A stretch of DNA of 64,000 nt from Alphaproteobacteria bacterium. GTDB lineage: Bacteria > Pseudomonadota > Alphaproteobacteria > UBA828. The notes beneath the pieces are model-generated. The model saw nothing but the letters and a program-made list of their open reading frames with translations, was not told the DNA's origin and made no database searches. This document shows positions 1 through 53,576 of this stretch, piece after piece. The first letter of the stretch is position 1; each line of letters starts with the position of its first letter. The stretch spans positions 384,001-448,000 of the forward strand of contig CBDCRW010000007.1 in NCBI GenBank assembly GCA_965221125.1, in the 5' to 3' direction. Both the position numbers and the translations under genes were made by a program.

Positions 1-16
1 CGGCACCGCCTGTTCT

Positions 17-60: not shown

Positions 61-112
61 GTGTTTTTCGTGGCGTCAACCTGCGCGCGTCACTGTTCAG
101 CCGCGGGCGGGA

Positions 113-185
113 CCCGGACGATGGTGCGGTGCACGGCGCACGCCGGGCGCGTCAGCATGGCGTCATGAGACGTTGCGCCATGAAC
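113..185 (+). promoter_or_regulatory. Conserved motif CCCGGACGATGGTGCGGTGCAC ... GCGCCATGAACG (copy A)
   Basis: 21/22 identical to 40437-40458 upstream of the phage-like module; the GCGCCATGAACG context is also shared; function inferred. Confidence 0.45.
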
Positions 186-354
186 GAACTGCACTCCTGC
201 CCGCCCGCCCCCGCACCGTGCTTCTGCGGGCACGAAAAAAATACAACTGTATCTGCGTGCGCGGCCCTGCGGGCGCTGGCGGCGTTCTCCGCGCCCGCAA
301 CCCATTGGGTGCAAACGACTTTCTCTGCGGACGCGGCCTGCCGCCCCGGTCGGT

Positions 355-470
355 CTTGTCTCGCTTTATCTCGCTTTGTCTCACTTTTATCTCGGTTTAT
401 CTCACTTTCATCTCGGCTTGTCTCACTTTCATCTCGGCTTGTCCCGCCTTGAAATCTCGCCTTGTCTCGC
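355..470. repeat. Degenerate tandem repeat, 10-11 bp units (TTRTCTCRST-like) with 21-bp higher-order period
   Basis: ttgtctcgct ttatctcgct ttgtctcact tttatctcggt ttatctcact ttcatctcggc ttgtctcact ttcatctcggc ... Confidence 0.85.
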
Positions 471-548
471 GAATTCCGACAAAAATGATGCGCGAAACGC
501 GGGCCGGTCAGCCGGAGATCGAAGCTCGCTCGACGCGCGGTGCGGGAC

Positions 549-37562: not shown

Positions 37563-37632
37563 GCCGGGAGCGTCCCTCGGCGGCACGCGTGGTCTCGTAC
37601 CCGGAGGCGCGCAACGGAAGGCAGGAAACCCG

Positions 37633-39935: not shown

Positions 39936-40226
39936 ATGGCGAGACGGTCTGCGACCAGCTTCGACGAGAGCACATTGACCAAGGGTCAACGCCGCAAACT
40001 GGACACACTGCGAAATTCCGTGGGTGACGAGATCGGTGAGCGTGCGTTCGCTGCCTGGTATGCCAAGCAACCGAAGCCTGTCGAGCCTGAAGTGGACCAC
40101 GACGCCGCGTTGATCGTCGATACGCTCTGGCCGCTCGTCCGGGACGGTACGCTGGCAATTCCGCGGGGCGGGTATCTGCTTCGTCGCGGCCGTCACCGAC
40201 TCATTTGCGAGCCCGCAAGAAAATAG
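39936..40226 (+). CDS. Small basic hypothetical protein (96 aa)
   Basis: GGAGGTG RBS before ATG; preceded by an AT-rich promoter-like region. Confidence 0.6.
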   Translation: MARRSATSFDESTLTKGQRRKLDTLRNSVGDEIGERAFAAWYAKQPKPVEPEVDHDAALIVDTLWPLVRDGTLAIPRGGYLLRRGRHRLICEPARK

Positions 40227-40436: not shown

Positions 40437-40495
40437 CCCGGACCATGGTGCGGTGCACAGGCGCTCCGGCGCGAGGCATTGTCCGCGCCATGAAC
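40437..40495 (+). promoter_or_regulatory. Conserved motif copy B, upstream of the phage-like operon
   Basis: CCCGGACCATGGTGCGGTGCAC ... GCGCCATGAACG, shared with 113-185. Confidence 0.45.
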
Positions 40496-41142
40496 GCTCT
40501 GAACGCTCCAACGCCCATCCACCACCCCGCCCGAGGCGCGGCGCACCGATGCCGCGCCCGTCGGGTTCCGGCTCACCATTTCCACACGTGCGGACGCGCA
40601 CCCATTCGATTCCACGCGCGTGGGGGCGCGCGATGAGCGCGCTCGACGGGTGGATCGACATCTGCCGTGCCGGCACCTGGCGCGACATGCAAGGCCACGA
40701 CGTGCGCCTCGACGAGGATCGGCTTGATCGCATCGTGGCGACGCACGCCGCCGCCGATCCGGCGCCGGTCGTGATCGGTCATCCCGAGACCGACGCGCCG
40801 GCCTTTGCCTGGATCGACGGGCTGCGCCGCGCCGGCGACCGGCTGCAGGCGAAGCTCCGCGACATCGCGCCGGCCTTCCGCGAGGCGGTGGAGGCGGGAC
40901 GCTACAGCGGCCGCTCGATCGCTCTCCAGGGCGACACGCTGCGCCACGTCGGATTCCTGGGCGGCCGCGCGCCGGCAGTGCCGGGGCTCGCGCCGACCCG
41001 CTTCGCGGCTGCGCCCGAGACGGTGGTCGCTTTCACCGACGACGGCGACGCGGACCGTTCAGACGACTCACCCGCAGACCACCCCGACTCTCTCCGCGCC
41101 CTGGAGCCGGGAGGAGACGAAGACGGCGACAGCCTCGTCTCG

Positions 41143-41170
41143 CTCCCCGCGCCTCAGGGGCGGGGAGAGG
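41143..41170. repeat. REP-like hairpin embedded in the protease linker
   Basis: CTCCCCGCGCC-TCA-GGGGCGGGGAG-AGG, similar to the element at 17-60. Confidence 0.4.
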
Positions 41171-41218
41171 CCGAAGAGGACGACGGTGATGAGGACGGCA
41201 ACGAACGTGTCGCCCTAG

Positions 41219-42831
41219 CCCGAATTATTCATGGCAGGTCTGGTTTTGGGGTGGCGGACGTAGCGTAAGTCGTTGCCATCGGGTAGGAATTCGTTGCCGA
41301 GGCGTCTTCCTCTCCGAACAACGAAAATGCCACGCCCGCCATGACCGACGATAGTCTTCTTCCCTTCGATCTGCCAAGCGTCCAACGCAAGAAGGTGAGC
41401 GCCGCCTTCGACGGCGGCCTGATCTCGTCTGACGGCGGCCTCGTCCTGCTTCGTGAGGCGGAACGCAGCTTGCGCCTGGCCGAGACCCTGGCCGGCTGCA
41501 TCCGCGACCGGCGCAAGCAGGCGCAGGTGATCCACTCGCTCTCGGCCATGCTGCGCTTCCGCATGTTCGCCATTGCGTGTGGCTACGAAGATGCCGACGA
41601 CTGCGACGCGCTGCGCGCGGACCCTCTGTTCAAGCTGGCCTCAGGCAAGGCGCCGGAGAGCGGCCGCGCACTCTGCTCCCAGCCGACCATGAGCCGCCTG
41701 GAGAACGCGCCGTCTCGTATCGAGGTGGCGCGCATGACGGCGGCGCTGGTCGATCTCTTCTGCCGCAGCTTCCAAGCCCCTCCCGCCGCCATAACCCTTG
41801 ACATCGACGACACCTGCGATGCGGTGCACGGCCACCAGCAGCTCTCGCTCTTCAACGCTCATTACGACACGCGCTGCTTCCTGCCCGTCCACGTCTACCA
41901 TGTGGAAAGCGGCAAGCCGGTGGCGGTCCTCCTGCGCCCGGGCAAGACGCCGTCGGGCCCTGAGGTCCGCACCCTCATCAAGCATCTGGTCCGCCGCATC
42001 CGCCGCCACTGGCCGCACACCCGGATCGTCTTCCGCGGAGACAGCCACTACGGCCGCCCGGAAGCCATGGCCTGGTGCGAGGAGAACGGGGTCGACTACA
42101 TCTTCGGCCTCGCGGGCAACCGCGCGCTGCACGCGCTCGCATACGAGATGGCCGACGATCTCAAGGTGCGCCGCGCCAAGGCCGGCGCAGACAGGATGCG
42201 CAGCTTCACCGCCTTCGACTACGCCGCCCGCTCCTGGAGCTGCGAACGCCGGGTCGTCGCCCGGCTCGAGGCGAGCACCCGCGGCTTCGATGCCCGCTAT
42301 GTCGTCACCTCACTCAAGGGCGAGCCCCGCCATCTCTACGAAGACATCTACTGCGCCCGCGGCCAGGCCGAGAACCTGATCAAGATGCACAAGGGCCAGC
42401 TCGCCTCGGACCGCACCTCCTGCCAGAGCCCGCTCGCCAATCAGCTCAGGCTGGTCCTCCACACCGCAGCCTACTGGCTCATGCTCGCGCTGCGCGACGC
42501 CATTCCCCGCGCCGCGCCGCTCGCCCGTGCAGAGTTTGCAACCCTCAGGCTGCGCCTCCTCAAGATCGGTGCCCGCGTCATCGAGAAGGCCACCCGCATC
42601 CGCATCCACTTCGCCTCGGCCTGCCCCGACGCCGCCCTCTTCCGCCTGCTCGCAGGCCGCCTCGCCGCAGCAGGCCCATGAGCGACGGGGCGGCGTGCCC
42701 CAATCACCCAGGCTCCATAAACCATCAACCCGATAACGACCATCCTCAGTTCCCGACGCCAAACCGCGTCAGGCCCCGACGCGCCCAATCAACCGAGCAT
42801 CAAGTGCAAGGCAGTCCATGAATAGGTCGGG
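41219..42831 (+). mobile_element. IS1380 family insertion sequence (1613 bp)
   Basis: Terminal IRs CCCGAATTATTCATGG / CCCGACCTATTCATGG (14/16); CTAG duplicated at 41215-41218 and 42832-42835. Confidence 0.93.
41341..42681 (+). CDS. IS1380 family DDE transposase
   Basis: FDGG.ISSDGG, GYED.DD, SQPTMSRLEN, LDIDDT, RGDS, Y..RG.AEN.IK. Confidence 0.95.
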   Translation: MTDDSLLPFDLPSVQRKKVSAAFDGGLISSDGGLVLLREAERSLRLAETLAGCIRDRRKQAQVIHSLSAMLRFRMFAIACGYEDADDCDALRADPLFKLASGKAPESGRALCSQPTMSRLENAPSRIEVARMTAALVDLFCRSFQAPPAAITLDIDDTCDAVHGHQQLSLFNAHYDTRCFLPVHVYHVESGKPVAVLLRPGKTPSGPEVRTLIKHLVRRIRRHWPHTRIVFRGDSHYGRPEAMAWCEENGVDYIFGLAGNRALHALAYEMADDLKVRRAKAGADRMRSFTAFDYAARSWSCERRVVARLEASTRGFDARYVVTSLKGEPRHLYEDIYCARGQAENLIKMHKGQLASDRTSCQSPLANQLRLVLHTAAYWLMLALRDAIPRAAPLARAEFATLRLRLLKIGARVIEKATRIRIHFASACPDAALFRLLAGRLAAAGP

Positions 42832-43358
42832 CTAGCCGAGCGGGAAGCCTCGCTCGCGGTGCGGGAGGAAGCGCTGCTGGCGCGGGAGGCAGCCGCCGCG
42901 GCAGACGACCGCCGCCGGGCGGCGGAGGCCGCGATTGCGCCGCATGTGGAAGCGGGGCGCATCCTGCCTGCGGAGCGGCCCGCGCTCGTCGCCCTGTTCA
43001 CCGCACTCGACGGCGAGGGGAGACGGGATGACGAGGGCGCCGACGATGGCTGCGTCACGGTCTCGTTCGCGTCCGCATCGGGCGACGAGGTGCAGATGCG
43101 GCCCGCCGCCATTCTCGAACGGTTCATCGAGGGCCTGCCCAGGCGTGTCGACTACCGCACGCTCGCGGGCGGCCCGGTGCCAGGCGCATCGGCCCTCACG
43201 GGCTCTCACGAAGGTACGGGCGAGGACAGCGAACGGATCGCTGCCGAGGCCCGCACGCTGATGGCGGCGGAGGCGGAGAGGGGCGTCACCCTCACGCCCG
43301 CCGAAGCCGTCGACCGGGCGCGCGCGAGGCGCGGACTCGGCATCCAAGGAGGAACGCA

Positions 43359-43715
43359 ATGAGTCATGTGTTGATGTGGCGAGCGGCGGACGCCGGCGGT
43401 GCCGTCGCCTCGCACCGGATCGTCAAGTACGGCGATGCGGACGGCAAGGTGGTGCAGTCCGCCGCTGCCGAGGACGCCCACGTCGGGGTCTCCGGTCGGG
43501 CGTCGGCCGCCTCAGGCGGGCGCGTCGAGATCGCCCGCGCCGGCATCGCCGACGTCCAGTACGGCGGCAACGTCGCGCGGGGCGCGCTGCTCACCGCCGA
43601 TGCCGACGGCAAGGCGGTGGCCGCCGCCGACGGCAATCGCGTCATTGGCATCGCCGAGGTTTCCGGCGCCGCCGGGGACATCGGCCAGGTGCTGCTGGCG
43701 CCCGGCCTCCACTGA
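43359..43715 (+). CDS. Capsid decoration/cement protein (DUF2190-like)
   Basis: Gly/Ala-rich 118 aa, G.LT.DADGKAV, IGIA..SG.AGD; lies between scaffold and capsid genes. Confidence 0.7.
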   Translation: MSHVLMWRAADAGGAVASHRIVKYGDADGKVVQSAAAEDAHVGVSGRASAASGGRVEIARAGIADVQYGGNVARGALLTADADGKAVAAADGNRVIGIAEVSGAAGDIGQVLLAPGLH

Positions 43716-43725
43716 GGGAATCACC

Positions 43726-44700
43726 ATGGATCACGAAACCGCTCAGCTCGCTTCCGGCCCCTACGAGGTCCAGACCCGGCTCACGCAGATCGCGCAGGCG
43801 GCGATGCCCTCCGGCCTGATCGCCGACGAGGTCTGCCCGCGCGTCCGCACCGGGTTCAAGTTCACCTACACGACGCTCACCGAAGAGGACCTGCTCACCA
43901 TCCCGGACGTCCGCGCCTCCCGCGCGGGCCACCTCAACCAGGTCGAGTTCGGCGCCACGGATACCACGGCAAGCGTCGTGGATTACGGCCTCGAAGACCC
44001 CGTCCCCTCACGCGACATCGAAGAGGCGCGCGCCCAGGAGGTCGCCTACGACCCCCTGGAGCAGGCGGCGATCTCGACCGCCGAGTTGGTGAAGCTCGCG
44101 CGCGAGCGGCGTGTCGCCGACCTGGTGACGACTGCGGCCAACTACGCGGCCGGCCATTCCACGACGCTCAACGGCAACGCGCGGTGGAGCCACGCCAGCT
44201 CGAATCCCCGCAAGGCGATCCTGGAGGCCCTCGACGTGCCGCTGGTGCGCCCCAACACGCTGGTGTTCGGCCAGAAGGTGTGGACCGCCCTGCGCCAGCA
44301 CCCGAAGATCGTGGAGGCTGTGGTCGCCACCGGCGCCGGCGACGAAGCCTCCGGCATCGTCATGAAGGAGGCGGTCGCCGAGCTCTTCGAGGTCGACCGC
44401 GTGCTGGTGGGCAAGGCCTGGTACCAGAGCGCCAAGCGCGGCCAGGCCGACTCCTTCGCGCGCCTCTGGGGCAAGCACGCGTGCGCCATCCACGTGCGCC
44501 ACGACATGGTGTCCGCCCGCGACCGCATGCCCAAGTTCTGCTGGACCGCCGATGCGCTGGGCGGGCTGCAGGTCGGCACCTATGAGGAGCCGGCGCGCGG
44601 CGTCAATCGGGGCTCCACGGTCGTCAAGGTCAGCGAATGCGTCAAGGAGCTGGTGGCCTATGGCCGTGCCGGCTACCTCTGGCGCGACGCGGTGGCCTGA
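43726..44700 (+). CDS. Major capsid protein (Mu-like phage type)
   Basis: LT.IA, LIADEV.PRV, RE.RVA.LV, W....S.P, RPNTLV.G..VW..LR.HPKI, WGKH, AGY...DAVA C-terminus. Confidence 0.8.
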   Translation: MDHETAQLASGPYEVQTRLTQIAQAAMPSGLIADEVCPRVRTGFKFTYTTLTEEDLLTIPDVRASRAGHLNQVEFGATDTTASVVDYGLEDPVPSRDIEEARAQEVAYDPLEQAAISTAELVKLARERRVADLVTTAANYAAGHSTTLNGNARWSHASSNPRKAILEALDVPLVRPNTLVFGQKVWTALRQHPKIVEAVVATGAGDEASGIVMKEAVAELFEVDRVLVGKAWYQSAKRGQADSFARLWGKHACAIHVRHDMVSARDRMPKFCWTADALGGLQVGTYEEPARGVNRGSTVVKVSECVKELVAYGRAGYLWRDAVA

Positions 44701-44703
44701 GCC

Positions 44704-45684
44704 ATGGCCGCATCCCCTCCTGATCCACTCTGCGGCCTCGGCTATTCGCCGGCAGACCCGCGCCAGTCGCCCGCCGAGGGCGCGGTCTGCCGGCACGCCG
44801 AGCGCCTGCTCAACATGGTCCACGCCTATTGCGAGATCCGGGACTCGTGGACCGGGTGGCTGCGCTCCGGTGCCATGAGCCGGACGCTGTTCGAGCGGAT
44901 CATCCCGGAGATGCGCGACCTCCAGGCCGCCGAGCGGCGCATCGTGGAGCGGCCGTCGGTAACGCTGCTGGCGGTGCTCGACTACGCCGCACGCGCGCGG
45001 CAGGCGGTGCGGGCGTACACGCCGCGCGAGGGCATCGACCATCCGCAGCCGGCGCTGCCGGACGGGGTGCGCGATGCCTGCGAGCGGATGGCGAGGGAGG
45101 CAGACCAGGCCGACCGTGCCGCCCGCCGCGCGGCCGCGCGCGAATACGCGGCGCGCATGGCCGACGCCATCGAGCGCGAGCGTGAGGAGGAAGCTCGCCG
45201 CCGGAAAGCGATGGTCGGGGCCGGCGTGACCGAGACGCCGGACGAGGCCAGGCGGGCGAGCGCCGCCGTGGAGGCTCGCATCGCGCTCTATGAGAGTGAA
45301 ATCCGGCGTGTCTACGCGAAAGCCGGTCTCGGCCCGGACGGCAAGGCCGAAGCCGCCGAAGCGCCGGCCGAGCCGCCGCCCGCTGCGACCGGAGTCGCCG
45401 TCCACTGGCACGTCCGCACGCGCCGGTGGGGCAGGACGATCCTGACACCCACGGCGGAAACCGCGCCCCGCTTCGCGGAGCGGCTGCTGCTGGTCGACCG
45501 GGGCAAGCGCGGCGGTGTGCTGCGCGCGTTCGGCGAGCCAGCGCTCGACGGTCTGCGCCAGACGATCAACGGCGTCGCCTTCCGCCTGAGCCACCGGCCG
45601 ACTGTCGCCGCGCGCCTTCGGCGCGACGCAGCTCGCTACGACGCGCGGCTCACGCCCGCGCAGGTCCGGGAGATGCGCACATGA
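44704..45684 (+). CDS. Hypothetical protein with central coiled coil
   Basis: 326-aa ORF tightly packed between capsid and gp36-like genes (ATGA overlap downstream). Confidence 0.6.
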   Translation: MAASPPDPLCGLGYSPADPRQSPAEGAVCRHAERLLNMVHAYCEIRDSWTGWLRSGAMSRTLFERIIPEMRDLQAAERRIVERPSVTLLAVLDYAARARQAVRAYTPREGIDHPQPALPDGVRDACERMAREADQADRAARRAAAREYAARMADAIEREREEEARRRKAMVGAGVTETPDEARRASAAVEARIALYESEIRRVYAKAGLGPDGKAEAAEAPAEPPPAATGVAVHWHVRTRRWGRTILTPTAETAPRFAERLLLVDRGKRGGVLRAFGEPALDGLRQTINGVAFRLSHRPTVAARLRRDAARYDARLTPAQVREMRT

Positions 45685-46082
45685 CCTACGCGACCCGCGC
45701 GGATCTCGATGCGCGCTTCGGCGCGGAAGAGGCGCTGGACCTCGCCGGGATGCAGGCCGGGCGGATCGAGTCCGCGCTCTCCGACGCGGCGGCCGAGATC
45801 GATGCGGCGCTCGCCGCTGCCTATCGCCTGCCGCTCGCGGGCGGCCCCTGGCCGCGGCTTATTGGCATCGCCTGCGACCTGGCCCGGCGTGCGCTCTACG
45901 ACGACGTCTCGTCAGCCGAAGTCGATGCGCGGGCCGAGCGGGCGCGTGCGGCGCTCGCCCGCCTCGCCGCCGGTGAGGAAGCGCTCCTCGACGACTCGGG
46001 CCGCCCGGCACCCCGACGCGACAGCGCCACGCGCGGCGGCTCGGCGCCCGCGCTCACGCCCGACAGCCTGGCGGGGTTGTGA
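45681..46082 (+). CDS. Head-tail connector, Mu gp36/DUF1320 family
   Basis: MTYAT..DL..RFG.EE, AL.DA.AEID..L...Y.LPL, ACDLAR..LY. Confidence 0.85.
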   Translation: MTYATRADLDARFGAEEALDLAGMQAGRIESALSDAAAEIDAALAAAYRLPLAGGPWPRLIGIACDLARRALYDDVSSAEVDARAERARAALARLAAGEEALLDDSGRPAPRRDSATRGGSAPALTPDSLAGL

Positions 46083-46531
46083 TGGCAGGGCAGGGGAGCA
46101 GCGTCGTGGTGGAGATCGCCCCGCGCGACGGATCGCTCGCACGACTGGCAGAGGTGCTTTCGCACCCCGGCGACATCATGGACCGGATCGGCCACTACCT
46201 GGTCGCGTCAACGCACCGGCGCTTCGAGCGCGAGCGCGCACCGGACGGCACGCCCTGGCTCAAGAGCGCCCGCGCCATTGCCGAGGGCGGTCAGACTCTC
46301 ACGAATACAGGCCGCCTGCGCGGCTCGATCGTGCACACGCTCACCGACGGCGGACGAGGCGTCGAAGTAGGGACGAACGTCGTCTACGCCGCCATTCACC
46401 AGTTCAGCGGCCGTGCCGGGAGAGGGCGGAGGACGAAGATTCCCGCGCGCCCCTACCTCGGCGTCGACGAGCACGACCGCGACACGATCCTTCGCATCGT
46501 CGCCCAGGCCATCGAAAGGGCAGGGGCATGA
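46082..46531 (+). CDS. Phage virion morphogenesis (tail completion) protein
   Basis: RF..E.APDG.PW, L..TGRLR.SI, VGTNVVYAAIHQF, IPARPYLG. Confidence 0.88.
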   Translation: MAGQGSSVVVEIAPRDGSLARLAEVLSHPGDIMDRIGHYLVASTHRRFERERAPDGTPWLKSARAIAEGGQTLTNTGRLRGSIVHTLTDGGRGVEVGTNVVYAAIHQFSGRAGRGRRTKIPARPYLGVDEHDRDTILRIVAQAIERAGA

Positions 46532-47004
46532 CTCTCGCGGCGCTGGAAATGCACCTCGCCGACGCAGTGGCGGAACGGCTCGCGGCGCTCAAGGCCGACG
46601 ACGACGCGCCGGTCTTTGCGGCCGTTCTCAGCGCGCTCGATACGGCGGCGCTCACGGCCTGGCCCAAGACGCCGGCCGCCCTGGTGCTGCCGATCTCAGA
46701 CGAAGCGGAGGGCAGCACGACGCGGCGCGTCGAGAACGCGCCGGTGCAGCACGTCGTGCGCGTCGGCGTCTCGATGATGGTCGCGGCGCCCAACGACCGC
46801 GGCGGCGTGCGCGGGCGCGAGCGACTCTCCGCCCTGCTCGCCCGCGCCCGGCAGGCGCTTGCGGGCTGGGCGCCGCCCGGCCAGCGCGAGGTCCTGTCCT
46901 TCCGCCGCGGGCGGCTGATCTCGCTGGAGGACGGGCGCCTTCAGTGGCTTGACGAGTACGAAATCCGCCGCGTCGCCCGTGCCGGCGTCGTGGAAGCTGA
47001 ATAG
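46528..47004 (+). CDS. Putative tail terminator (Mu gp37-like)
   Basis: Position before the tube gene; TPAA.V.P, AL.GW.P, L.W.DEY. Confidence 0.65.
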   Translation: MTLAALEMHLADAVAERLAALKADDDAPVFAAVLSALDTAALTAWPKTPAALVLPISDEAEGSTTRRVENAPVQHVVRVGVSMMVAAPNDRGGVRGRERLSALLARARQALAGWAPPGQREVLSFRRGRLISLEDGRLQWLDEYEIRRVARAGVVEAE

Positions 47005-47016
47005 GGAGACACGCGA

Positions 47017-47907
47017 ATGACCGCGCGAAGCATCGACAAGCGCACCGACAACATCCTCATCGGCGCCGGCGAGGTCTATCTCGACATCCACGAGGGAGGC
47101 GCTGCCACGGGCGAGCGCTACCTCGGCGATGCCGTGGGCGCCGAGCTGGAGGTGGCGGCCGAGGAAACCACGGTCTTCTCGGGCTCGGGCCCCGTCGCGC
47201 GCGAGCTCACGCGCATCGCCCGCAGCGTGACGCGGACGGCGCGGCTCACGCTCCACGACATCAGCCTGGAGAACCTGGCGCTCTTCACGGTAGGCGACGT
47301 GAAGCGGCTCGGCGCCGCCGGCGCTGTCTCGGGCGAGGCGGCCATCCTGCGGCCCGGCCGCTGGTACCAGCTGGGAGGGGCCGACCGGCCCGCCGGCGTG
47401 CTCAGGCTCGCGACGCCAGCCAGCAAGGCCGCGGCCATCGCCGCCGTGACCGTCGCCTCCACAGCGCAGACGCCGGTGACGGCGACGCAAGCGATCGAGG
47501 CCAACCGCTTCGCCACGGGCAACGCCGAGGCCGAGCAGAAGGGCCAGTACATCGTGGACTATGCCCGCGCCCGGATATTCTGGTTGCCCGCCGACCACGC
47601 GCTCTACGAGGCCAAGGCCGGTGTCGAGGCGGATACCGCTCTCGCCATCGACTACACGCCCGACGATGCGGCGCGGGACCAGGTGCAGGGCGCGTTCCGG
47701 CAATTGATCGGCGCCTTCCGCTATATCGAGGACGCCGCCGAGGGCCAGGGGCGGAACATCTATGCGCCGCGCTGTTCGATCCAGCCGGCCGGCGGGCTGA
47801 CCCTGCTCGACGGGCGCTCGTCCGAGCAGCAGATCCGCCTCGCCGTCTCGATGCTGGAGCCAGGCGGCGGCCGGCCTGCGCTCTATATCGACGGGCAGGC
47901 CGCATGA
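47017..47907 (+). CDS. Putative major tail tube protein (non-contractile)
   Basis: N..IG.GEVY, GERYLGD, LTLHDISLENLALF; position; no sheath gene nearby. Confidence 0.7.
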   Translation: MTARSIDKRTDNILIGAGEVYLDIHEGGAATGERYLGDAVGAELEVAAEETTVFSGSGPVARELTRIARSVTRTARLTLHDISLENLALFTVGDVKRLGAAGAVSGEAAILRPGRWYQLGGADRPAGVLRLATPASKAAAIAAVTVASTAQTPVTATQAIEANRFATGNAEAEQKGQYIVDYARARIFWLPADHALYEAKAGVEADTALAIDYTPDDAARDQVQGAFRQLIGAFRYIEDAAEGQGRNIYAPRCSIQPAGGLTLLDGRSSEQQIRLAVSMLEPGGGRPALYIDGQAA

Positions 47908-48403
47908 AGGCCGTGCACGAGCTGGCGGTGCTGTTCCCGGACCGCGACGTAGCGGTGCGGGATCCCGACACCGGCGCCGAGGTCTCGCTCACGGTGCGGG
48001 AGTTCCGCTTCCGCGAAGGGCTGCGACGGCGCTGGGGCGGCCCTTGATCGCGGCCCTGGCGGCGCTGGTGCCGGAGACGGGCAGCAGCGCGAACGACCAG
48101 GAGGATGAACCGGACGCGCTTACGATCGAGAGCGCGCTCGCCGCCCATGCGGCGCTCTGGCTGGAACTCACCGCCCGCGCCTGCGGCCGGGATGCGGACT
48201 GGCTCGCGCGCCTCGGCGATGCGGACGGCCGCGCGCTCTCGGAGGCGATGTGGGCGGCGAACGGAGGATTTTTTTTGCGCCGCGTCGTGGCCCAGGTGGC
48301 GAGCCGGGCGCGGGGAGCGAACCCGTTGCGCTCTCCCGCGTGCTCGACACCCTCGTCCGCGCCGGCCACGGGCGCGGCCACCTCGACCTCGGCGAGCGCC
48401 TGA
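47904..48403 (+). pseudogene. Tail assembly chaperone, frameshifted near 48022
   Basis: MKAVHELAVLFPDR..VREFRFREGL stops at 48047; the C-terminal part (..PLIAALA..W..N..FF.RR) continues in another frame. Confidence 0.65.
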
Positions 48404-48447
48404 CGTGGCGGCAGATCGTCCTCTTCTACCGAACGGCGACGGAATGA
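48269..48447 (+). CDS. -1 frameshift extension of the tail chaperone (gpGT-like)
   Basis: T8 run with T TTT TTG heptamer; the -1 frame is open and ends LTWRQIVLFYRTATE. Confidence 0.55.
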
Positions 48448-48486
48448 CCGGCTGGCGGTCGAAGGAGATGGTGCATCGGGAGCGCC

Positions 48487-48574
48487 GGGCCGTAGGCCCG
48501 GACGGCGCGGACGCGCCGCGCGCCGCACGGCGCGAGAGCCAAGCGAGCGGAGCGAGCGCCCGGCGACTGAGGGA
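48487..48574 (+). repeat. Dispersed structured repeat, copy 2
   Basis: GGGCCGTAGGCCCGGACGGCGCG...AGCCAAGCGAGCGGAGCGAGCGCCCGGCGACTGAGGGA, 8 nt before the TMP ATG. Confidence 0.85.
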
Positions 48575-48582
48575 ACCAAAAT

Positions 48583-49362
48583 ATGCCAAGTGATCTCGAT
48601 CTCGCGGTGCGCGTTCGTGCCGACATGCGCGAGGCGCTGCAGGGAATCGGCGCGCTCAACCGCTCCCTCGGGGATACCGCGCGGCGGAGCGGCGAGGCGG
48701 ACGCGGCGCTTGCGGGCGCAACCGGCGCGGCGCGGGAACTCTCGGCGACGTTCGGGCGGGCGCCGGGTCCCGAGGCGGACGCAGCCTGGATCGACGCGAT
48801 GCAGACATCGCTGAGCGCTCTCGGCCGCGAGAGCGAGCGCACGCTTGATGGAACCCGATCTGCGGCGGAGACCGCCTTCGACGCCATGGAGGGGGCGCTC
48901 ACCCGGTTCGTGACCACGGGCAGGCTCGATTTTTCCGGCTTCGTCGATTCCGTGATCGCCGATCTCGCCCGCCTGGCGACACGCCGCTTCTTCGCCCAGC
49001 CCCTGAGCGACCTGCTGTTCGGCGTGCTCGGCGGCGGCGCGGCGGCTGCCTCTGCCCCGATCTTCCACGCCGGCGGCACGATCGGCGCGCTGGGCGGCGT
49101 CAGGCGGGACGCCGGGCTCCGCGCCGATGAGGTGCCGGTGATCGCGCAACGCGGCGAGACGATCCTGCCGCGCGGCGCGCGGATCGCTCCGCCTTCCGTG
49201 CACGTCAACTTCGAGAACCGCGGCACGCCGCAGCGCGAGGTGAGCCGCGAGGTGCGCTTCGATGCCCGCGGCGTCGTTGTCTCAATCGTTACCGACGATC
49301 TCCGGCGGGGCGGCCCCATTCGTCAGACCATGCAGCGCGAACTCGGCGGAGGCACGCGATGA
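48583..49362 (+). CDS. Short tail tape measure protein (lambda-type C-terminal domain)
   Basis: L.VRVRAD N-terminus; F.AMEGALT.FVTTG.LDF..F..SVIADLAR; FHAGG; DEVP.I.QRGE. Confidence 0.8.
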   Translation: MPSDLDLAVRVRADMREALQGIGALNRSLGDTARRSGEADAALAGATGAARELSATFGRAPGPEADAAWIDAMQTSLSALGRESERTLDGTRSAAETAFDAMEGALTRFVTTGRLDFSGFVDSVIADLARLATRRFFAQPLSDLLFGVLGGGAAAASAPIFHAGGTIGALGGVRRDAGLRADEVPVIAQRGETILPRGARIAPPSVHVNFENRGTPQREVSREVRFDARGVVVSIVTDDLRRGGPIRQTMQRELGGGTR

Positions 49363-49372
49363 TCCGGGTGAA

Positions 49373-49465
49373 GGGCCGGGGCGCGAAGCGGCCCGGAGCG
49401 CGCGACCGCGCGCCGCGCGAAGCGCGTAGGCAAGCGAGCGGAGCGAGCGCCCGCCGATTGAGGGA
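49373..49465 (+). repeat. Dispersed structured repeat, copy 3
   Basis: GGCCCGGAGCGCGCG...GGCAAGCGAGCGGAGCGAGCGCCCGCCGATTGAGGGA, 9 nt before GTG start. Confidence 0.8.
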
Positions 49466-49474
49466 AACGAACAA

Positions 49475-49843
49475 GTGACGGGCCTCGTCTGGCCCGACTA
49501 CGCGGCGGTCGAGGCGGACGGCTACGCCGTCAGCGACGACACCAACGTGGAACGCACGCCCTTCGACGACGGCTTGATCCGCCAGGTGCGGCGCCATGCA
49601 AGCGCGCTGACGGCGCTCTCGATCACCGCCTTGCTCGCGAACGACGCCGACTATCGGCGCTTTCGCGCCTGGGCGGCGGAGAACGCGCATCGCTGGTTCG
49701 CATGGGCGGCACCGGAGTCCGGCACCGTGCATCAGGTGCGCGTGCGCGGCGGCGCCGGCGGAATCGAATACACGGCGCGCATCGGCCCGGACGGCCGGCG
49801 CTCGTGGGAGGCGATCCTCGATCTCGAGGGCGTCGGACTTTGA
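49475..49843 (+). CDS. Putative distal tail protein
   Basis: WP.Y, GY, V.RT.FDDG..RQ.R, F.AW, WF.W; directly follows the TMP. Confidence 0.65.
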   Translation: MTGLVWPDYAAVEADGYAVSDDTNVERTPFDDGLIRQVRRHASALTALSITALLANDADYRRFRAWAAENAHRWFAWAAPESGTVHQVRVRGGAGGIEYTARIGPDGRRSWEAILDLEGVGL

Positions 49844-49855
49844 GCCTTTTGTATT

Positions 49856-49940
49856 TCCCTCAATCGCCGGGCGCTCGCTCCGCTCGCTTGGCTACGCGCT
49901 GCGCGCGCGGCGCGGTCGCGCCGTCCGGGCCTGCCGGCCC
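49856..49940 (-). repeat. Dispersed structured repeat, copy 4 (inverted)
   Basis: TCCCTCAATCGCCGGGCGCTCGCTCCGCTCGCTTGGCT...CGCGCCGTCCGGGCC is the reverse complement of the consensus. Confidence 0.85.
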
Positions 49941-49947
49941 GGCCCTC

Positions 49948-52900
49948 ATGCAGCAAAGCGGTAGGGCGACTCAAATCTCTACCGATATCTGGCCGCATCC
50001 GCTCACTGCGCACGGCCGCCAGGCCCGCGCGCTCGCGGTGCTGCCGGAGACCGCCCTCGCGGATGTGATCGCGGAGGCGCTGCCCGGCGCCGGCGATTCC
50101 GATCTGATCGCGTCCGCGCTACCGCTGCGCTGCTTGAGCGCGGACGCGCCCTTCACCGCCGCCATCGATGGCCGGCCCGTGCCGCCGGCCGTCTGGGCAA
50201 CAACGCAACTCCGCGCCGGCCAGATCGTCACCTTGCGCGCGGCGCTGGCCGACGGCAGCGGGGGCAAGAATCCCCTCGCCGCAATCCTCCAGATCGCCAC
50301 CCTCGTCGCCGCCATTGTGGTGCCGCCCCTGCTCTTCGCCTCATCCTGGGCGCAAGCGATCACCGGCGCCGCCATCACCATCGCCGGCGGGCTGATCGTG
50401 AATGCGCTCGCCCCGCCCCGCGCGCCGGATGCCCTGCCCGAGCCGGGCGCCGCGCCCGCGCCCGTCTACAGCCTCCGCGCCGGCTCCAATCGCGCGCGCC
50501 CCTACGAGCCCCTGCTGCTCGTCATGGGCGCGCATCGCGTGTTCCCCGATCTCAGCGCCGCCGAGTACACCGAGATCGTCGACGGCGAGCAGTACCTCCA
50601 TCAGATTTTCAACTTCGGCCTCGGCAATCTCGCCATCGACGATTTCCGCATCGGCGAGACGGCGCTGCGCTCCTACGAGGAGGTGAGCCTCCAGCGCGAC
50701 GATGCGGCCGGCGCGCTTACCCTCGTCGCCGGCAACGTGGACAGCGAGGCCGGCGGCGTGCTGGCCGATCCCGCCTTTATCGAAAGGGCCACCGGCCCGA
50801 ACACGGGGCGCATCGGCATCGATCTCGCCGGGCGCATCTTCGAGGTGAACGAGCAGGGCGATATCGTCGCGAACAGCGTGGAGATCGAGGTCCAGTGGGA
50901 GCCGGCCGCCGGCGGCGGCCCGGTGGAAAGCCGCACGGTCACGCTCACCAACGATAGCCAAGCGCCCTATCGCCGCACGCTGGGCTACGATCTCGGCACG
51001 CCCGGCGCCTGGATCGTGCGCGTGCGCCGCGCCGCCCCGCCGGCCGATTCGGATCGCGTCTATGACGATCTCTCCTGGGCCGCGCTCCGCGCCTATCAGC
51101 TCGATACGGCCGATTACCAGGGGCAGACGCGCTACGCCCTGCGCATCCGCGCATCCGGCCAGCTTTCCGGCCGCCTCAATCGCGTCTCCGCGATGGTGCG
51201 CCAGCGCGTGCCTACATGGGACGGCACTCAATGGACGGCCTCGATGCCGACGGACAACCCGGCATGGCTGTTCCGCTGGTATGCGCGGGGCATCCGCGTG
51301 GACGGCCGCCTCGTGGCCGGCCTCGGCCTCTCCAGCCGGCGCATCGATGAGGAGGCGCTGAAAGCATGGGGCGCCTGGTGCGCCGCGCAAGGGCTCGGCT
51401 GCAACCTTGTGCTGGACCGCGCCATCACGCATGGCGATGTGCTGGCGCTCATCGCCCAATGCGGGCGCGCGAGCGTGAGCTGGCAGAGCGGCAGGCTCGG
51501 CGTGGTCTGGGAGGAAGCCGGGCGCCCGGCAACGGCCCTGATAACGCCCGGCAACATCGTCGCCGGCTCCTTCGCCGTGGAATACGCCAATGGCCGCGGG
51601 GCGGACGAGATCGCGGTGCGCTACATCGATCCCGCGCTCGATTGGCAATACAACACGCTCCGCCGCCTGGCGCCCGGCGTCACGACTCCGCCCGCGAGCA
51701 CGGCCACGATCACGCTGCACGGCGTCACCTCAAGCATGCAGGCGGCGGCGGAATGCAATCTGCAGGCCGCGCGCCAGCTCTACCATCGCCGCCGCTTCTC
51801 ATGGGAGATGGCGGCGGAGGGGCTTTCGCTCGCGCGGGGCGACGTGGTCCATCTCACCCATTCCCTGATCGATGGCGGGCGCGCCGGGCGCCTCGCCGGC
51901 GGCGATGCCGCGCGCCCGGTGCTCGATAGGCCGGTGAACGTCGACGGCGGTGGCGAGATGCTGTTCCGCCTGGCGGACGGCCGCGTGCATCGGAGCGCCG
52001 TCTCCGCCCCGCCGGGCGTGGCCGGGGAGACCGCCGCAATCGCGCTCGCCACGCCCTTGCCGCAGGCCCCGGATGCGGATGGCGCCAGCCCGCGCGATTC
52101 GCTCTGGCGCCTCTACGATGCCGCCCTGCCGCCGGTGCGCGCCCGCATCGTCGCGGTAGAGCCCGCAACGGACCGGCGGGTGCGCTTTACCGCCATCGAC
52201 GAGCTCGCGCTCTACTACGATGCCGCCACGCTCGATCTCTCCGCACCGCTGCCGCCGCTGCGCTCGCGCGCGCCCCGCATCCTCGATGTCACGCTGGCCG
52301 AAACGCTGGTGCGCGTGGGCGCCGGCTTCGCCGTGGAGATCGAGGCCGCGCTGACCGTGGCCGGCGATTGGCGGGGCGGCGTGATCCGCGCCGGCATCGA
52401 TGGCGAGACGCCGCGCACCGTGGCGCGCATGATCGATGGCGAGACCACCGCGCGATGGCTGGCGCCGCCCGCCGGCACGCTCACCGTGACCGTCACGCCC
52501 GGCACGGAGGCCGCGCCCTCCGGCGCGCCGTTCACTACCATCTACGAGATCGTCGGCCCCCTGGCGCCGCCGCTGCCGCCCTCCAATTTCCTGATCGATG
52601 TGCTGGGCGACGGCACGCGGCGCCTGCGCTGGACCCCGCCGCTGGACGTCGATCTCGCCGGCGTGCTGATCCGCTTCGGCGCCCAGGCCCGCCCGCCGCT
52701 GGATTGGGAGCAGCTCATGCCGCTGCATCGGGGCCATCTCACCGCCTCGCCGCTGGAGACAATCGAGCCGCCCGCCGGCGTCTGGGTCTTTTCGGCCCGC
52801 GCCATCGATACCGGCGGGCGCCTCTCCGAAGAGGAGGTGCGGATCGTGGCCGAGCTCGGGCCGCAGCGCCAGGGCGATGCCATCGTTTGGGTCTGCCCCT

Positions 52901-53565
52901 CCGCTACCGGCTGGCCCGGCACGCTGTTCGATACCATCGAACGCTCCGATGATGGCCGCGATGCGCTGGAGAACATCGGCGATTACACCTGGGACGATCT
53001 CACCACCTGGGACGCCTGGGAGTCGTGGACAACCGGGAACGGCATGCAGGCGACCACGGAGATCCTGTTTCGGAGCACGGTCGAAGATTTGGGCGCCGTG
53101 TTCGATGCCGAGTTGCGCTGGACGGCGGATGTGGTGGGCGAGGCCGAATTCGAATACCGCGCCGCGGAGGCGCGGGAGGATATCGCGGGCGCGGCCTGGA
53201 CGCCCTATGTGCCGGCGACAACGGTGCATGGGCGCTTCCTGCAAATGCGCTGGCGCGTCACCGGCGACGGCACGCGGGTTATCGGCCTCGATCACCTCTG
53301 CTGGTCAATCCACGCCCCCGGCGCCATCCGCAAGCTGCTTGATCGCAACACGGCCGATTGGCCGGGCACGGCGGCGGATGGGCGCGAGGTGCCGAACGAT
53401 CTCCGCCTCGTCACCGATCTCGACGTCACCCTGCAATCCGTAAGCGCCGGCTGGAGCTGGACGCTGCTCAGAAAGAACGATCCCACGCTGATCAGGATTT
53501 ACGATGGCGACGGCAATCCGGCCGATGCCATCGTGGACGTGATCGTGCGCGGCGTCGCCGCATAG
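49948..53565 (+). CDS. Tail tip/host specificity protein (TipJ-like, with N-terminal gpI-like region)
   Basis: Hydrophobic hairpin after GGKNPL, N.ARPYEP...V.G.HR..PD, RIRASGQLSG, NPAW, FN3-like P..P.NF..RLRW; start uncertain. Confidence 0.8.
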   Translation: MQQSGRATQISTDIWPHPLTAHGRQARALAVLPETALADVIAEALPGAGDSDLIASALPLRCLSADAPFTAAIDGRPVPPAVWATTQLRAGQIVTLRAALADGSGGKNPLAAILQIATLVAAIVVPPLLFASSWAQAITGAAITIAGGLIVNALAPPRAPDALPEPGAAPAPVYSLRAGSNRARPYEPLLLVMGAHRVFPDLSAAEYTEIVDGEQYLHQIFNFGLGNLAIDDFRIGETALRSYEEVSLQRDDAAGALTLVAGNVDSEAGGVLADPAFIERATGPNTGRIGIDLAGRIFEVNEQGDIVANSVEIEVQWEPAAGGGPVESRTVTLTNDSQAPYRRTLGYDLGTPGAWIVRVRRAAPPADSDRVYDDLSWAALRAYQLDTADYQGQTRYALRIRASGQLSGRLNRVSAMVRQRVPTWDGTQWTASMPTDNPAWLFRWYARGIRVDGRLVAGLGLSSRRIDEEALKAWGAWCAAQGLGCNLVLDRAITHGDVLALIAQCGRASVSWQSGRLGVVWEEAGRPATALITPGNIVAGSFAVEYANGRGADEIAVRYIDPALDWQYNTLRRLAPGVTTPPASTATITLHGVTSSMQAAAECNLQAARQLYHRRRFSWEMAAEGLSLARGDVVHLTHSLIDGGRAGRLAGGDAARPVLDRPVNVDGGGEMLFRLADGRVHRSAVSAPPGVAGETAAIALATPLPQAPDADGASPRDSLWRLYDAALPPVRARIVAVEPATDRRVRFTAIDELALYYDAATLDLSAPLPPLRSRAPRILDVTLAETLVRVGAGFAVEIEAALTVAGDWRGGVIRAGIDGETPRTVARMIDGETTARWLAPPAGTLTVTVTPGTEAAPSGAPFTTIYEIVGPLAPPLPPSNFLIDVLGDGTRRLRWTPPLDVDLAGVLIRFGAQARPPLDWEQLMPLHRGHLTASPLETIEPPAGVWVFSARAIDTGGRLSEEEVRIVAELGPQRQGDAIVWVCPSATGWPGTLFDTIERSDDGRDALENIGDYTWDDLTTWDAWESWTTGNGMQATTEILFRSTVEDLGAVFDAELRWTADVVGEAEFEYRAAEAREDIAGAAWTPYVPATTVHGRFLQMRWRVTGDGTRVIGLDHLCWSIHAPGAIRKLLDRNTADWPGTAADGREVPNDLRLVTDLDVTLQSVSAGWSWTLLRKNDPTLIRIYDGDGNPADAIVDVIVRGVAA

Positions 53566-53576
53566 GAGAGGAACAC

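Follow-up and report, generated by a model that had tools for sequence, protein, structure and literature searches.

A 22-nt motif that occurs twice, 40 kb apart, in the stretch of alphaproteobacterial DNA analysed here (the window, 64,000 nucleotides) is probably the operator end of a 55-nt promoter-and-start module of the phage Mu Mor/C type. From its architecture, we infer that a dimeric Mor-like activator, on which expression would depend, binds a 16-bp dyad that stands in for the -35 element. RNA polymerase would use a cAnnAT hexamer and start at an invariant ATG, or within one base of it. With such a start, the mRNA would have no leader. The ATG would be either the gene's own start codon or the opening of a short ORF that overlaps the start of the real gene, giving coupled translation. 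Modules of this kind head every locus of a split head-tail system (TerL, portal, DUF5675 with a holin-like gene, and a protease-capsid-tail operon), together with multicopy Gp27-like/iteron cassettes and their non-coding derivatives. If this reading holds, one 16-bp operator and one Mor-like activator link scattered Mu-like phage remains, and the whole regulon can be traced by sequence.

Copies and anatomy of the module

The 22-mer belongs to a multicopy family. Its sequence, CCCGGAC[C/G]ATGGTGCGGTGCAC, is found at window positions 113-134 (copy A) and 40437-40458 (copy B), and scanning the window at ≤3 mismatches returned these two matches against 0.00 expected (100 shuffles). The copies are identical at 21/22 bases and differ at one, as a preliminary description of this DNA had reported. 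That description treated them as a pair, which does not hold: the 4.58-Mb genome, scanned at the same tolerance, contains 42 sites (20 forward, 22 reverse; 0 for a reversed-pattern control), 41 of which are full 55-nt modules. In view of the 42 sites, we dropped a prophage att-site reading, in which the two copies would be direct repeats 40 kb apart. Sigma-54 and ECF-type promoters were judged by eye and rejected for their unsuitable spacing. Among viral contigs (IMG/VR), the exact 16-mer gave nine matches, none with an ATG at the module distance, and we take these occurrences to be unrelated.

The module has three parts. The first is the 16-bp dyad CCG[C/G]ACCATGGT[G/C]CGG, which lies inside the 22-mer and is spelled CCG[C/G]A-CCATGG-T[G/C]CGG, its two 5-bp arms forming inverted repeats. 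Its positions are each conserved in 13-18 of the 18 non-redundant copies; the palindrome is perfect in 9 of the 41 modules, and the commonest variant, with G at position 5, accounts for 24. The second part is a -10-like hexamer, cAnnAT, at -12 to -7 with +1 at the ATG, in which A at -11 and T at -7 are each present in 18/18 non-redundant copies from the source genome. The third is the ATG itself, 7 bases past the hexamer in 18/18 such copies and 52 or 53 nt from the start of the 22-mer in 40 of 41 modules. Among the 18 copies, conservation sets in abruptly at the dyad and covers positions -52 to -29; no conservation is seen before -53 or after +3. A typical -35 hexamer is absent, the region reading TGCACG (3/6 bases of TTGACA). 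Taking the conserved ATG as +1 puts the dyad centre at -43.5; the figure depends on this assignment, which the invariant A at -11 and T at -7 support. Dyad, hexamer and ATG together have the anatomy of an activator-dependent late promoter, which, judged by sequence, bears out the earlier suggestion of a late-promoter or activator site.

The dyad could instead be a repressor operator, bound for example by an S24-peptidase CI/LexA-like protein that silences the phage-derived loci, with the promoter elsewhere. Dyad operators are typical of CI/LexA-like repressors, and a gene beside the activator gene described below (G000:C7:361030-361974, G000 being the source genome) encodes a CI-like repressor that contains a Peptidase_S24 domain; it is conserved in the relative G003. 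However, there is no conserved promoter candidate upstream of the dyad, and the poor -35 (TGCACG) with a well-placed -10-like hexamer fits activation from about -43.5, not repression. A Mu-type precedent with matching 16-bp geometry also exists (PMC4390567). We consider a repressor operator quite improbable.

A structured leader, also raised in the preliminary description, would make the motif the 5' arm of an RNA that hides the ATG in a riboswitch-like or attenuator arrangement, CAUGGUGCG pairing with CGCGCCAUG. Positions -45 to -37 are complementary to -6 to +3 in copy B and in many short-spacer copies. This pairing is, however, missing in the long-leader class, and the 3' arm is moderately conserved (11-16 of 18 copies agreeing per position). 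The 5' arm is invariant, so covariation cannot support the pairing. In the commonest variant (24/41), the dyad cannot form an intact stem of its own, the abrupt onset of conservation at the dyad does not fit a leader, and there is no conserved upstream promoter able to transcribe the 22-mer. A search of the 64-kb window for known structured RNAs (Rfam, gathering threshold) gave 0 matches. We hold this possibility to be very remote, and the promoter module remains our preferred reading.

The flanks of the two copies are partly shared. As first described, AGCCGCGG lies upstream and GCGCCATGAACG downstream of both, but the spacing of AGCCGCGG is unequal (6 nt in copy A, 14 nt in copy B), and in copy A it is part of a separate 19-mer repeat, cactgttcagccgcgg, of which there are 8 genome copies, 6 of them ≤40 nt upstream of a module. 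The features around copy A are as follows (window coordinates).

1..112, forward strand: REP-like composite repeat between two 22-mer copies; the part at 1-75 has dozens of BLAST copies in the genome
88-106, forward strand: cactgttcagccgcgg repeat, an optional upstream element at the end of the composite repeat and the source of copy A's AGCCGCGG
113..134, forward strand: copy A 22-mer, comprising the dyad at 114-129 (imperfect, G at two positions) and a TGCAC tail
153..158, forward strand: -10-like hexamer CAGCAT, placed at -12 to -7 when +1 is set at the ATG at 165
165..167, forward strand: family-conserved ATG, 52 nt past the start of the 22-mer
356..471, forward strand: about 10 tandem 10-bp iterons, S type (TT[G/A]TCTC[G/A][G/C]C)
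113..517 (right limit approximate), forward strand: whole non-coding cassette headed by copy A

The neighbouring 22-mer lies at G000:C7:383920, 80 nt left of the window, and its module is 193 nt left of copy A. The preliminary description had given ATGs at 40490 and 180 as the downstream starts. The former is the module ATG of copy B; the ATG at 180-182 is a by-product of a local 15-nt duplication that sister copies do not have, the conserved ATG being that at 165-167. The cassette runs from the module through a ~190-nt non-coding stretch to the iterons and an A-rich tail. Copy A serves no gene and is one of the internally deleted cassettes.

Loci behind the module and their candidate activator

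Copy B is the predicted promoter of a phage-like structural operon, which is laid out as follows (window coordinates).

39936..40226, forward strand: small conserved ORF of 96 codons (from an internal ATG of ORF 39795-40226), upstream of copy B
40437..40458, forward strand: copy B 22-mer, comprising the dyad (putative operator) and TGCAC, before the structural operon
40477..40482, forward strand: -10-like hexamer CATTGT (cattgt, catggt, caatgt or cagagt in orthologues)
40490..40636, forward strand: upstream ORF of 48 codons, beginning at the module ATG; its TGA overlaps the protease ATG (ATGA, 40633-40636)
40633..41268, forward strand: head maturation protease gene, 5' part (phrog_976 positions 33-177), interrupted by an insertion sequence
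41341..42681, forward strand: IS transposase (DDE_Tnp_1_4) splitting the protease gene
42859..43362, forward strand: protease gene, 3' part (phrog_976 positions 268-387)
43359..54287, forward strand: rest of the head-tail operon, with genes for scaffold/cement, major head protein, neck, major tail protein, short tape measure, J-like central fibre and collar fibre

Among sequencing runs recorded as RNA, none was listed as containing window 37400-41340. Copy B has the lowest family-profile score (27.9 bits); here and in the orthologous copies, one extra base separates dyad and ATG (offset 53). Its position is kept in 17 related loci; the DNA to its left is not conserved. The order SDR gene, small ORF, module, protease recurs across relatives, and synteny with the housekeeping SDR gene is seen at 10 protease loci. 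In one protease paralogue (L034), a palindromic form of the motif lies 31 nt ahead of the gene's own ATG.

The short ORF before the protease is constrained in frame. We find the module upstream of the orthologous protease operon in 17/17 loci that carry the operon. The short ORF is open in all 17 and has 10 lengths (18-58 codons); measured to the protease start, the distance is 2 mod 3 at every locus, and stop and start overlap (ATGA, GTGA or TGATG) in 17/17. Every one of the 10 length variants keeps the frame, and no locus lacks the stop-start overlap; on this comparative evidence, the short ORF at 40490-40636 is translated and coupled to the protease. Its 48 codons and its stop overlapping the protease ATG had been correctly described (ATGA at 40633). 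The module is also found upstream of the portal in 16/17 loci, where the short ORF has 14, 17 or 20 codons and always a TGATG overlap. The motif is conserved upstream of homologous clusters. Before the Gp27-like gene, the short ORF has 29 and 21 codons in two of three full units, again with TGATG. If our reading holds, this is unusually clean comparative evidence that 5'-terminal short ORFs are translated, loading ribosomes onto structural genes.

Functions missing from the window had been expected elsewhere under the same motif, and TerL, portal, a DUF5675 gene with a holin-like gene, and small-terminase-like genes are indeed found there. TerL has a degenerate module upstream, and for the DUF5675 gene (PF18925, E 9.6e-25) the module ATG serves as the start. 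When module-served genes are compared across ~17 species, the module precedes every Mu Gp27-like (small-terminase-like) gene. The Gp27-like protein matches PF11985 Phage_Mu_Gp27 (58.6 bits, cut-off 28) and phrog_426 ‘terminase small subunit’ (E 4.8e-19). Its three full copies in the source genome are on contigs C5 and C6 and TerL is on C7, so the small-terminase gene does not adjoin TerL; a Gp27-like fragment beside TerL is found in G003 only. Mu F was not found in the source genome. The Mu transposase DDE_2 gave no match there either, but the control was silent too and this blank is uninformative.

The motif is abundant within the genus and rare outside it. The 16-mer occurs 10-66 times in 17/20 congeners vs 0-1 times in 20 genomes of other genera. 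Among the 20 congeners, the protease was found in 16, Portal_Mu in 18 and Terminase_6C in 17; the genomes compared are relatives, and cross-genome counts such as these are not independent. G019 has 32 motif copies, and a protease homologue was not found there with the query used. Portal and TerL loci are on different contigs from the protease locus or 0.08-1.7 Mb from it (e.g., in G011, G004, and G000). The source genome's own protease gene is interrupted by an IS, and ~110 profile positions are missing from its portal, which has an internal deletion; relatives such as G008, G011, and G004 have both genes intact. As read from these genomes, the head-tail system is Mu-like, vertically inherited across the clade, and dispersed so that no single locus is a whole phage. 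If our reading holds, its retention by an uncultured alphaproteobacterial genus through ~20 speciations is the signature of a domesticated phage, which we regard as a candidate gene transfer agent of a lineage unlike known ones.

The regulator is probably not the one originally put forward. The ORF at 39936-40226 shows 58-84% identity at the matching place in 14 related loci, but it has no Pfam or PHROG match, and no DNA-binding family was found among the searches. Profile matches point to a better candidate, a Mor-like protein of 107 aa encoded once per genome (G000:C7:359666-359986), whose gene was traced through a PHROG match in G003 and then by tblastn. It matches phrog_836 ‘late transcriptional activator’ (E 1.3e-12, profile positions 16-120 of 133) and falls just below the Pfam Mor cut-off (24.2 bits, cut-off 24.9); 26 of its 46 database homologues have a precomputed PF08765 match. 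A six-frame genome search with Pfam Mor (PF08765) gave nothing at E ≤ 0.001. Foldseek, run on the predicted fold (pLDDT 91), returned nothing at E ≤ 0.001; Mor 1rr7 ranked second (E 1.4) and 9l0y_J sixth. A second fold comparison of the activator model returned only a generic C-terminal HTH (Z ~3), and a PDB sequence search with the Gp27-like and Mor-like proteins returned nothing meaningful. The gene is present as a single copy, at 84-98% identity, in 13 further genomes of the genus (15/20 matching overall). It was not found in G012, G016, and G017, which have 0-1 motif copies, nor in two incomplete assemblies. Promoter anatomy, the phage loci served, and this co-occurrence suggest that the original proposal of a dispersed late regulon was largely right, except that copy A heads a non-coding cassette.

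Multicopy cassettes and the packaging question

Most modules (37/41) head cassettes, all of them intergenic. Cassettes are ~260-560 bp in size, apart from three full units of ~900-970 bp that consist of a module, a Mu Gp27-like gene, and a 10-bp iteron array. The others are internally deleted, non-coding derivatives, and the short ones retain exactly the promoter, the first codons of the small-terminase-like gene, and the direct repeats. Short V-type cassettes have one deletion junction in common relative to full units, which suggests that a single derivative has multiplied. ORFs that open at cassette module ATGs have a GC3 of mostly 0.57-0.79 (two at 0.86-0.87), compared with ~0.9 in genes. 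Occurrence at many random intergenic sites had been named as evidence against a regulon. Many intergenic sites do exist, 34/41 modules having no phage gene behind them, yet these sites are not random, since they derive from a phage packaging cassette. A purely regulatory reading leaves the existence and multiplication of these gene-less copies unexplained.

The motif might be only the terminal recognition sequence of selfish MITE-like repeats, recognised by a trans-acting transposase or recombinase, with its position before phage genes reflecting an insertion preference. The short intergenic cassettes and the single amplified V-type derivative favor this, as do copy numbers that vary widely among species. 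Copy A is a case in point, since at the orthologous intergenic position five relatives (G020, G015, G011, G006, and G018) have only 40-110 bp and no cassette, and three (G001, G014, and G004) have a different module-plus-iteron cassette. However, the module keeps a fixed place before the protease or portal in 16-17 loci, with the short-ORF frame preserved. Within it, only the dyad, two hexamer bases, and the ATG are invariant and the spacer varies, a functional pattern and not one of recent copying. We saw no terminal inverted repeats, target motif, or target duplications on inspecting the flanks and comparing one filled with one empty site, and the sole protein of the full units is in no transposase family. 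Mobility and promoter function are also compatible with each other. That the motif is nothing but a recognition sequence thus seems unlikely, and we retain the promoter module. Cassette orientation relative to flanking genes follows no rule (++ 16, +- 9, -- 7, -+ 5, 4 unresolved), so the idea that cassettes act as promoters of downstream host genes is unsupported.

The iterons may have a role in packaging. Arrays are exactly 10-bp-periodic, comprise 3-15 units, and are placed after the Gp27-like gene. There are 1-15 small-terminase-like matches per genome, and each intact gene has its own repeat array after it. There are three iteron types (V, S, and P) and three variants of the presumed recognition helix, and each type goes with its own variant in 15/15 classifiable cases, with 0 mixed, an association that amounts to only three independent contrasts. 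Tentatively, the ~40 cassettes per genome might be working pac sites, each small-terminase-like protein reading its own iteron type, at which the domesticated Mu-like particle would fill its heads once the activator fires; we think this possible, though doubtful. If true, it would describe a gene transfer agent with programmed, oriented entry at dozens of chromosomal points, not random entry. Alternatively, the cassettes may be the smallest known satellites (a promoter, a terminase adaptor, and a pac site) hitch-hiking on the Mu-like particle. Amplification of a promoter together with a terminase-adaptor gene and helically phased repeats raises the question of how packaging specificity evolves and spreads, whether the cassettes are pac sites, satellites, or junk. 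In the literature searched, we found neither multicopy Gp27-like/iteron cassettes nor a dispersed element under Mor control.

Comparison with known systems

The module resembles the Mor/C promoters of phage Mu. In Mu, PI precedes gene I, and one of the operons served here begins with a head protease, as the PI operon does. As in Mu, the element encodes a small HTH protein, which is here a candidate Mor-like activator. According to PMC4390567, the 16-bp element recognised by a dimer of Mu Mor is centred at -43.5 and contains two 5-bp inverted repeats, to which the dimer binds. Mu Mor/C promoters (Pm, Plys, PI, PP, and Pmom) share with the module a 16-bp dyad, 5-bp inverted repeats, and a -43.5 centre if +1 is the ATG, as well as a recognisable -10 and the lack of a proper -35 (PMC4390567, PMC2582627). 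Unlike in Mu, we predict a leaderless transcript that opens with a coupled short ORF, and the dyad sequence is unrelated to Mu's. Furthermore, the promoters serve loci scattered over megabases of chromosome instead of one phage genome, and the promoter is copied ~40 times per genome.

Multilocus gene transfer agents offer a second comparison. Examples are RcGTA, with dispersed loci controlled by GafA, and CcGTA, with GafYZ; as in these, the phage-derived structural genes are vertically inherited in a clade, split over loci, and tied together by one dedicated activator, here predicted (PMC5026251, PMC9638019, PMC11150451). However, ancestry is Mu-like here (Portal_Mu, Gp27, Gam, Mor-like) and not HK97/RcGTA-like. 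The present system is not known to make particles or to transfer DNA, and its source genome has an IS-split protease and an internally deleted portal. The RcGTA small terminase reportedly lacks sequence specificity, whereas here there are 1-15 small-terminase-like matches per genome, the intact genes each having a repeat array.

The cassettes can be compared with pac regions and with prokaryotic MITEs. As in the pac regions of SPP1 and SF6, short cassettes combine a promoter, the first small-terminase-like codons, and direct repeats. In contrast to those regions, the repeats form long 10-bp-periodic arrays (3-15 units) after the gene and not around its start, and there are dozens of such regions per chromosome, their pac role being putative. 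Like MITEs, the cassettes are short, non-coding, and multicopy, have a common deletion junction with a longer coding parent, and differ in presence or absence between species. Unlike with MITEs, inspection showed no terminal inverted repeats or target duplications, the parent has no known transposase, and what is conserved at the cassette end is a promoter-like module, found in front of fixed chromosomal genes as well.

The 22-mer module and the genes it precedes

The 22-mer belongs to a dispersed family. CCCGGAC[C/G]ATGGTGCGGTGCAC occurs at window positions 113-134 (copy A) and 40437-40458 (copy B), and shuffled sequence gave no match. Both copies have GCGCCATGAACG downstream and AGCCGCGG upstream, the latter at unequal spacing from the 22-mer (6 nt versus 14 nt). 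The preliminary description of the repeat thus holds, including the shared flanks and the ORF at 40490-40636, which ends in an ATGA overlapping the start of the next gene. The two window copies are real, but they are not a duplicated pair: allowing three mismatches on both strands of the genome (4.58 Mb, 69% G+C), we found 42 sites, against none for a reversed control. A profile of the 22-mer plus the next 36 nt recovered 41 full-length modules.

All module copies share one architecture. The 22-mer is followed by some 18 variable, G+C-rich bases, then by the hexamer cAnnAT, and after six more bases comes an ATG. In 39 copies the ATG lies 52 nt beyond the point where the 22-mer begins, and in copy B 53 nt; in one copy it is shifted by a 4-nt insertion. 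Among 18 copies whose downstream 53 nt are less than 75% identical, and with the A of the ATG as +1, only positions -52 to -29, the A and T of the hexamer (18/18 each), and the ATG (18/18) are conserved, with background-level conservation upstream of -53 and downstream of +3. The 22-mer contains a 16-bp dyad, CCG[C/G]ACCATGGT[G/C]CGG, which is a perfect palindrome in 9 of the 41 copies. The commonest form has G at position 5 (24/41), leaving one position asymmetric, and a relative carries a doubly swapped dyad that is still perfect (ACCGGACCATGGTCCGGT). The bases around the ATG, -6 to +3 (e.g., 40484-40492), CGCGCCATG, are similar to the dyad's left half, CGCACCATG. The likeness may mark a third half-site or be coincidental in G+C-rich DNA.

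Modules stand before several phage-derived genes, and no terminase or portal gene lies within the 64-kb window. In the source genome (contig numbers prefixed C), where the window spans C7:384001-448000, the features are:

Window 40437-40458: copy B, preceding the head maturation protease gene (phrog_976)
Window 40633-41268 and 42859-43362: the protease gene, split by an insertion sequence
Window 41341-42681: the insertion sequence, with a DDE_Tnp_1_4 transposase (E 4.5e-166)
C7:342908, minus strand: portal module, heading a 17-codon ORF whose TGATG overlaps the portal gene
C7:342183-342824: internally deleted portal gene, without the first ~110 profile positions
DUF5675 module: its ATG is the DUF5675 start codon (PF18925, E 9.6e-25), and a holin-like gene is next
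C6:422624, plus strand: module separated from its iterons by an insertion

These four modules (copy B, portal, DUF5675, and C6:422624) lack directly associated iterons. TerL is also preceded by a module, which is degenerate. The protease is followed by scaffold, major head, neck, tail, short tape-measure, J-like, and collar-fibre genes. The split protease and the shortened portal suggest that the phage-derived system is defective here and intact in most relatives.

The tape-measure gene (window 48583-49362) has 259 codons and its counterpart in a relative (G003, L106:4828-5685) has 285. This is short for a siphovirus-type tail, and the shortness appears to be conserved rather than the result of truncation. 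Between TerL and the portal module, outside the window on its left side, stands a gene of 449 codons (C7:342955-344304, minus strand) that encodes RTX calcium-binding repeats and a C-terminal serralysin domain. It is probably an insertion, since TerL and portal adjoin in relatives.

Conservation in relatives and short, probably coupled ORFs

The module is widespread within the genus. The 16-mer CCATGGTGCGGTGCAC, with at most one mismatch, occurs 10-66 times in 17 of 20 congeners. It occurs 0-1 times in the other three (G012, G016, and G017) and in 20 genomes of other genera. Among the congeners, the protease was found in 16, Portal_Mu in 18, Terminase_6C in 17, and the Gp27-like gene in 17 (1-15 matches per genome). 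TerL and portal are usually neighbours with a module in between, and the protease locus is remote from them, on another contig or 0.08-1.7 Mb away. That locus is syntenic: an SDR gene (91-96% identity across 10 loci), a small ORF, the module, and the protease. Such an arrangement bears the mark of a domesticated phage, scattered through the genome and passed down vertically, rather than that of a recent prophage.

The 22-mer, the hexamer, and ATGAACGCTCTGAAC are kept upstream of the protease in 17 loci, while DNA further left is not. Two paralogous protease loci (L033 and L038) are without a module, at a third locus (L034) a palindromic variant stands 31 nt upstream of the ATG of the protease itself, and L018 carries a module that falls outside the one-mismatch filter of the ORF analysis. 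Upstream of the portal, the module is present in 16 of 17 loci and absent from one stretch (L129). The proposal that the 22-mer is a shared late-promoter or activator site, linking the structural operon to missing functions elsewhere, is largely borne out, and the motif is conserved before homologous clusters. The alternative of a structured leader found no support.

Short ORFs starting at the module ATG are under frame constraint. Before the protease, the ORF is open in all 17 loci analysed, with 10 different lengths (18-58 codons), and its ATG is invariably separated from the protease start by a distance of 2 mod 3. The stop of the ORF overlaps the protease start in every locus, as ATGA, GTGA, or TGATG. 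Some of these loci are near-identical; even so, each length change required frame-keeping indels. Before the portal, the ORF has 14, 17, or 20 codons in 16 loci, with TGATG on the portal ATG. We take these comparisons as strong evidence for translation of the short ORFs, which would pass ribosomes to the structural genes. The module ATG is the gene's own start in DUF5675 and in a large Gp27-like subfamily (MQNE...).

A candidate Mor-like activator and the proposed promoter

A candidate activator is encoded elsewhere in the genome. In G003, a phrog_836 'late transcriptional activator' gene lies amid Mu Gam-like, CI-like repressor, DUF5675, and holin-like genes, a Gp27 fragment, and TerL; the same set occurs in the source genome at C7:359-364 kb. 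The evidence for its family is mixed: the Mor-like protein there matches phrog_836 (E 1.3e-12) and scores 24.2 bits against Pfam Mor, just below the cut-off of 24.9; a precomputed Mor match exists for 26 of its 46 database homologues. The predicted structure of the Mor-like protein is confident (pLDDT 91) and matches solved Mor weakly, a comparison that says little either way because Mor is an intertwined dimer. The gene is single-copy, with 84-98% identity in 13 further genomes of the genus. Matches were found in 15 of the 20 congeners searched in all, and none in three motif-poor genomes or two incomplete assemblies. The regulator proposed earlier, at 39936-40226, gained no support.

Two papers (PMC4390567, PMC2582627) describe a 16-bp element, centred at -43.5, whose pair of 5-bp inverted repeats is bound by a Mor dimer, and Mu late promoters, including PI, with a -10 and no -35. 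With the ATG as +1, the module hexamer lies at -12 to -7, with invariant bases at -11 and -7, and the dyad centre lies at -43.5. The module would therefore match Mu Mor-dependent geometry exactly if transcription starts at the ATG. We propose that a dimer of the Mor-like protein occupies the dyad and brings in RNA polymerase, that transcription starts at or next to the ATG, that the message would be leaderless, and that translation of the structural gene is coupled to that of the short ORF. A search for RNA records covering window 37400-41340 gave none. All the evidence is computational, and gene calls not taken from tool outputs rest on a crude caller that uses third-position G+C. Within that scope, comparison shows how the module is built, that it is conserved at orthologous genes, that short ORFs are held in frame, and that the module co-occurs with the Mor-like gene across the genus.

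Iteron cassettes

Most of the 41 family members are non-coding cassettes. Tandem 10-bp arrays follow 37 of the 41 modules on the same strand, 142-819 nt downstream. V iterons (TTG[T/G][G/A]CC[A/G]C[C/T]) form 24 arrays and S iterons (TT[G/A]TCTC[G/A][G/C]C) form 16, and 37 of these 40 are paired with a module. Each of three full-length units starts with a module. Next come a short ORF (of 29 and 21 codons, with a TGATG overlap, in two of the three) and a gene of some 200 codons whose stop is immediately followed by iterons. The product of this gene matches Pfam Phage_Mu_Gp27 (58.6 bits) and phrog_426 'terminase small subunit'; these are the genome's only Gp27-like genes. The full unit is kept in five other assemblies (protein identity 61-67%), with the same downstream gene in four.

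Short V-type cassettes run from the promoter through the short ORF into the opening codons of the Gp27-like gene, then switch to iterons at a junction that is identical throughout. They therefore descend from one deletion derivative that multiplied. No inverted termini, target duplication, or transposase were seen in the cassettes and flanks inspected. A dispersed repeat, gcccgcatttctcaccaaggtcatgg(t/c)c, lies beside or inside cassettes (e.g., C5:247380-247430, C6:287436-287480, and C5:126700-126760). Several V-type cassettes end in ...CGCTCTA abutting the stop codon of a convergent gene (e.g., C2:135870 and C5:418040), and the cassette end may supply that stop codon.

Copy A does not stand at a gene. 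It heads a short, non-coding S-type cassette (window 113 to about 517) between two convergent genes, and ORFs from its ATG have low third-position G+C (0.59). The corresponding site is an empty spacer of 40-110 bp in five relatives and holds a different module-plus-P-iteron cassette in three. Cassettes therefore come and go, and the site is reused.

Two further repeats adjoin modules. A REP-like composite (CCCCTCCCC...GGAGGGGG hairpins, then GGGGTGAGGTGGGGGTGTTTTTC...) lies between two 22-mer copies at two loci:

Window 1-112 and C7:383920-384112: composite flanked by 22-mers; the part at window 1-75 has dozens of genome copies
C3:520545-520852: second composite flanked by 22-mers

It looks as if the composite inserted into the dyad, duplicating it. 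The repeat cactgttcagccgcgg (window 88-106) has 8 genome copies, 6 within 40 nt upstream of a module, and either extends some cassettes on their upstream side or is a neighbour sharing the same target.

Array type tracks the recognition helix presumed for the neighbouring Gp27-like protein, with no mixed cases. V arrays accompany SAV[V/N]R proteins in 7/7 and S arrays accompany AAVGRY proteins in 2/2. SAVGRY proteins have P arrays ([A/T][A/T]TCCC[A/G]C[T/C]T, seen in relatives; the source genome was searched for V and S types) in 6/24, the other 18 having fewer than three recognisable units. The association spans three clades and so provides only three independent contrasts.

The promoter type itself is already known. 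Three aspects appear to be new, as the literature searched held no earlier description of any of them: its deployment across a Mu-like system that is dispersed and inherited vertically, the short ORFs with their putative coupling and leaderless start, and its amplification with terminase-adaptor/iteron cassettes. In PMC4737164 the SPP1 pac region is defined by a promoter, the start of the small-terminase gene, and direct repeats. The cassettes combine the same three elements, and this likeness gives rise to the most interesting of the readings still standing, in which the cassettes would be pac sites dispersed through the genome or else minimal satellites.
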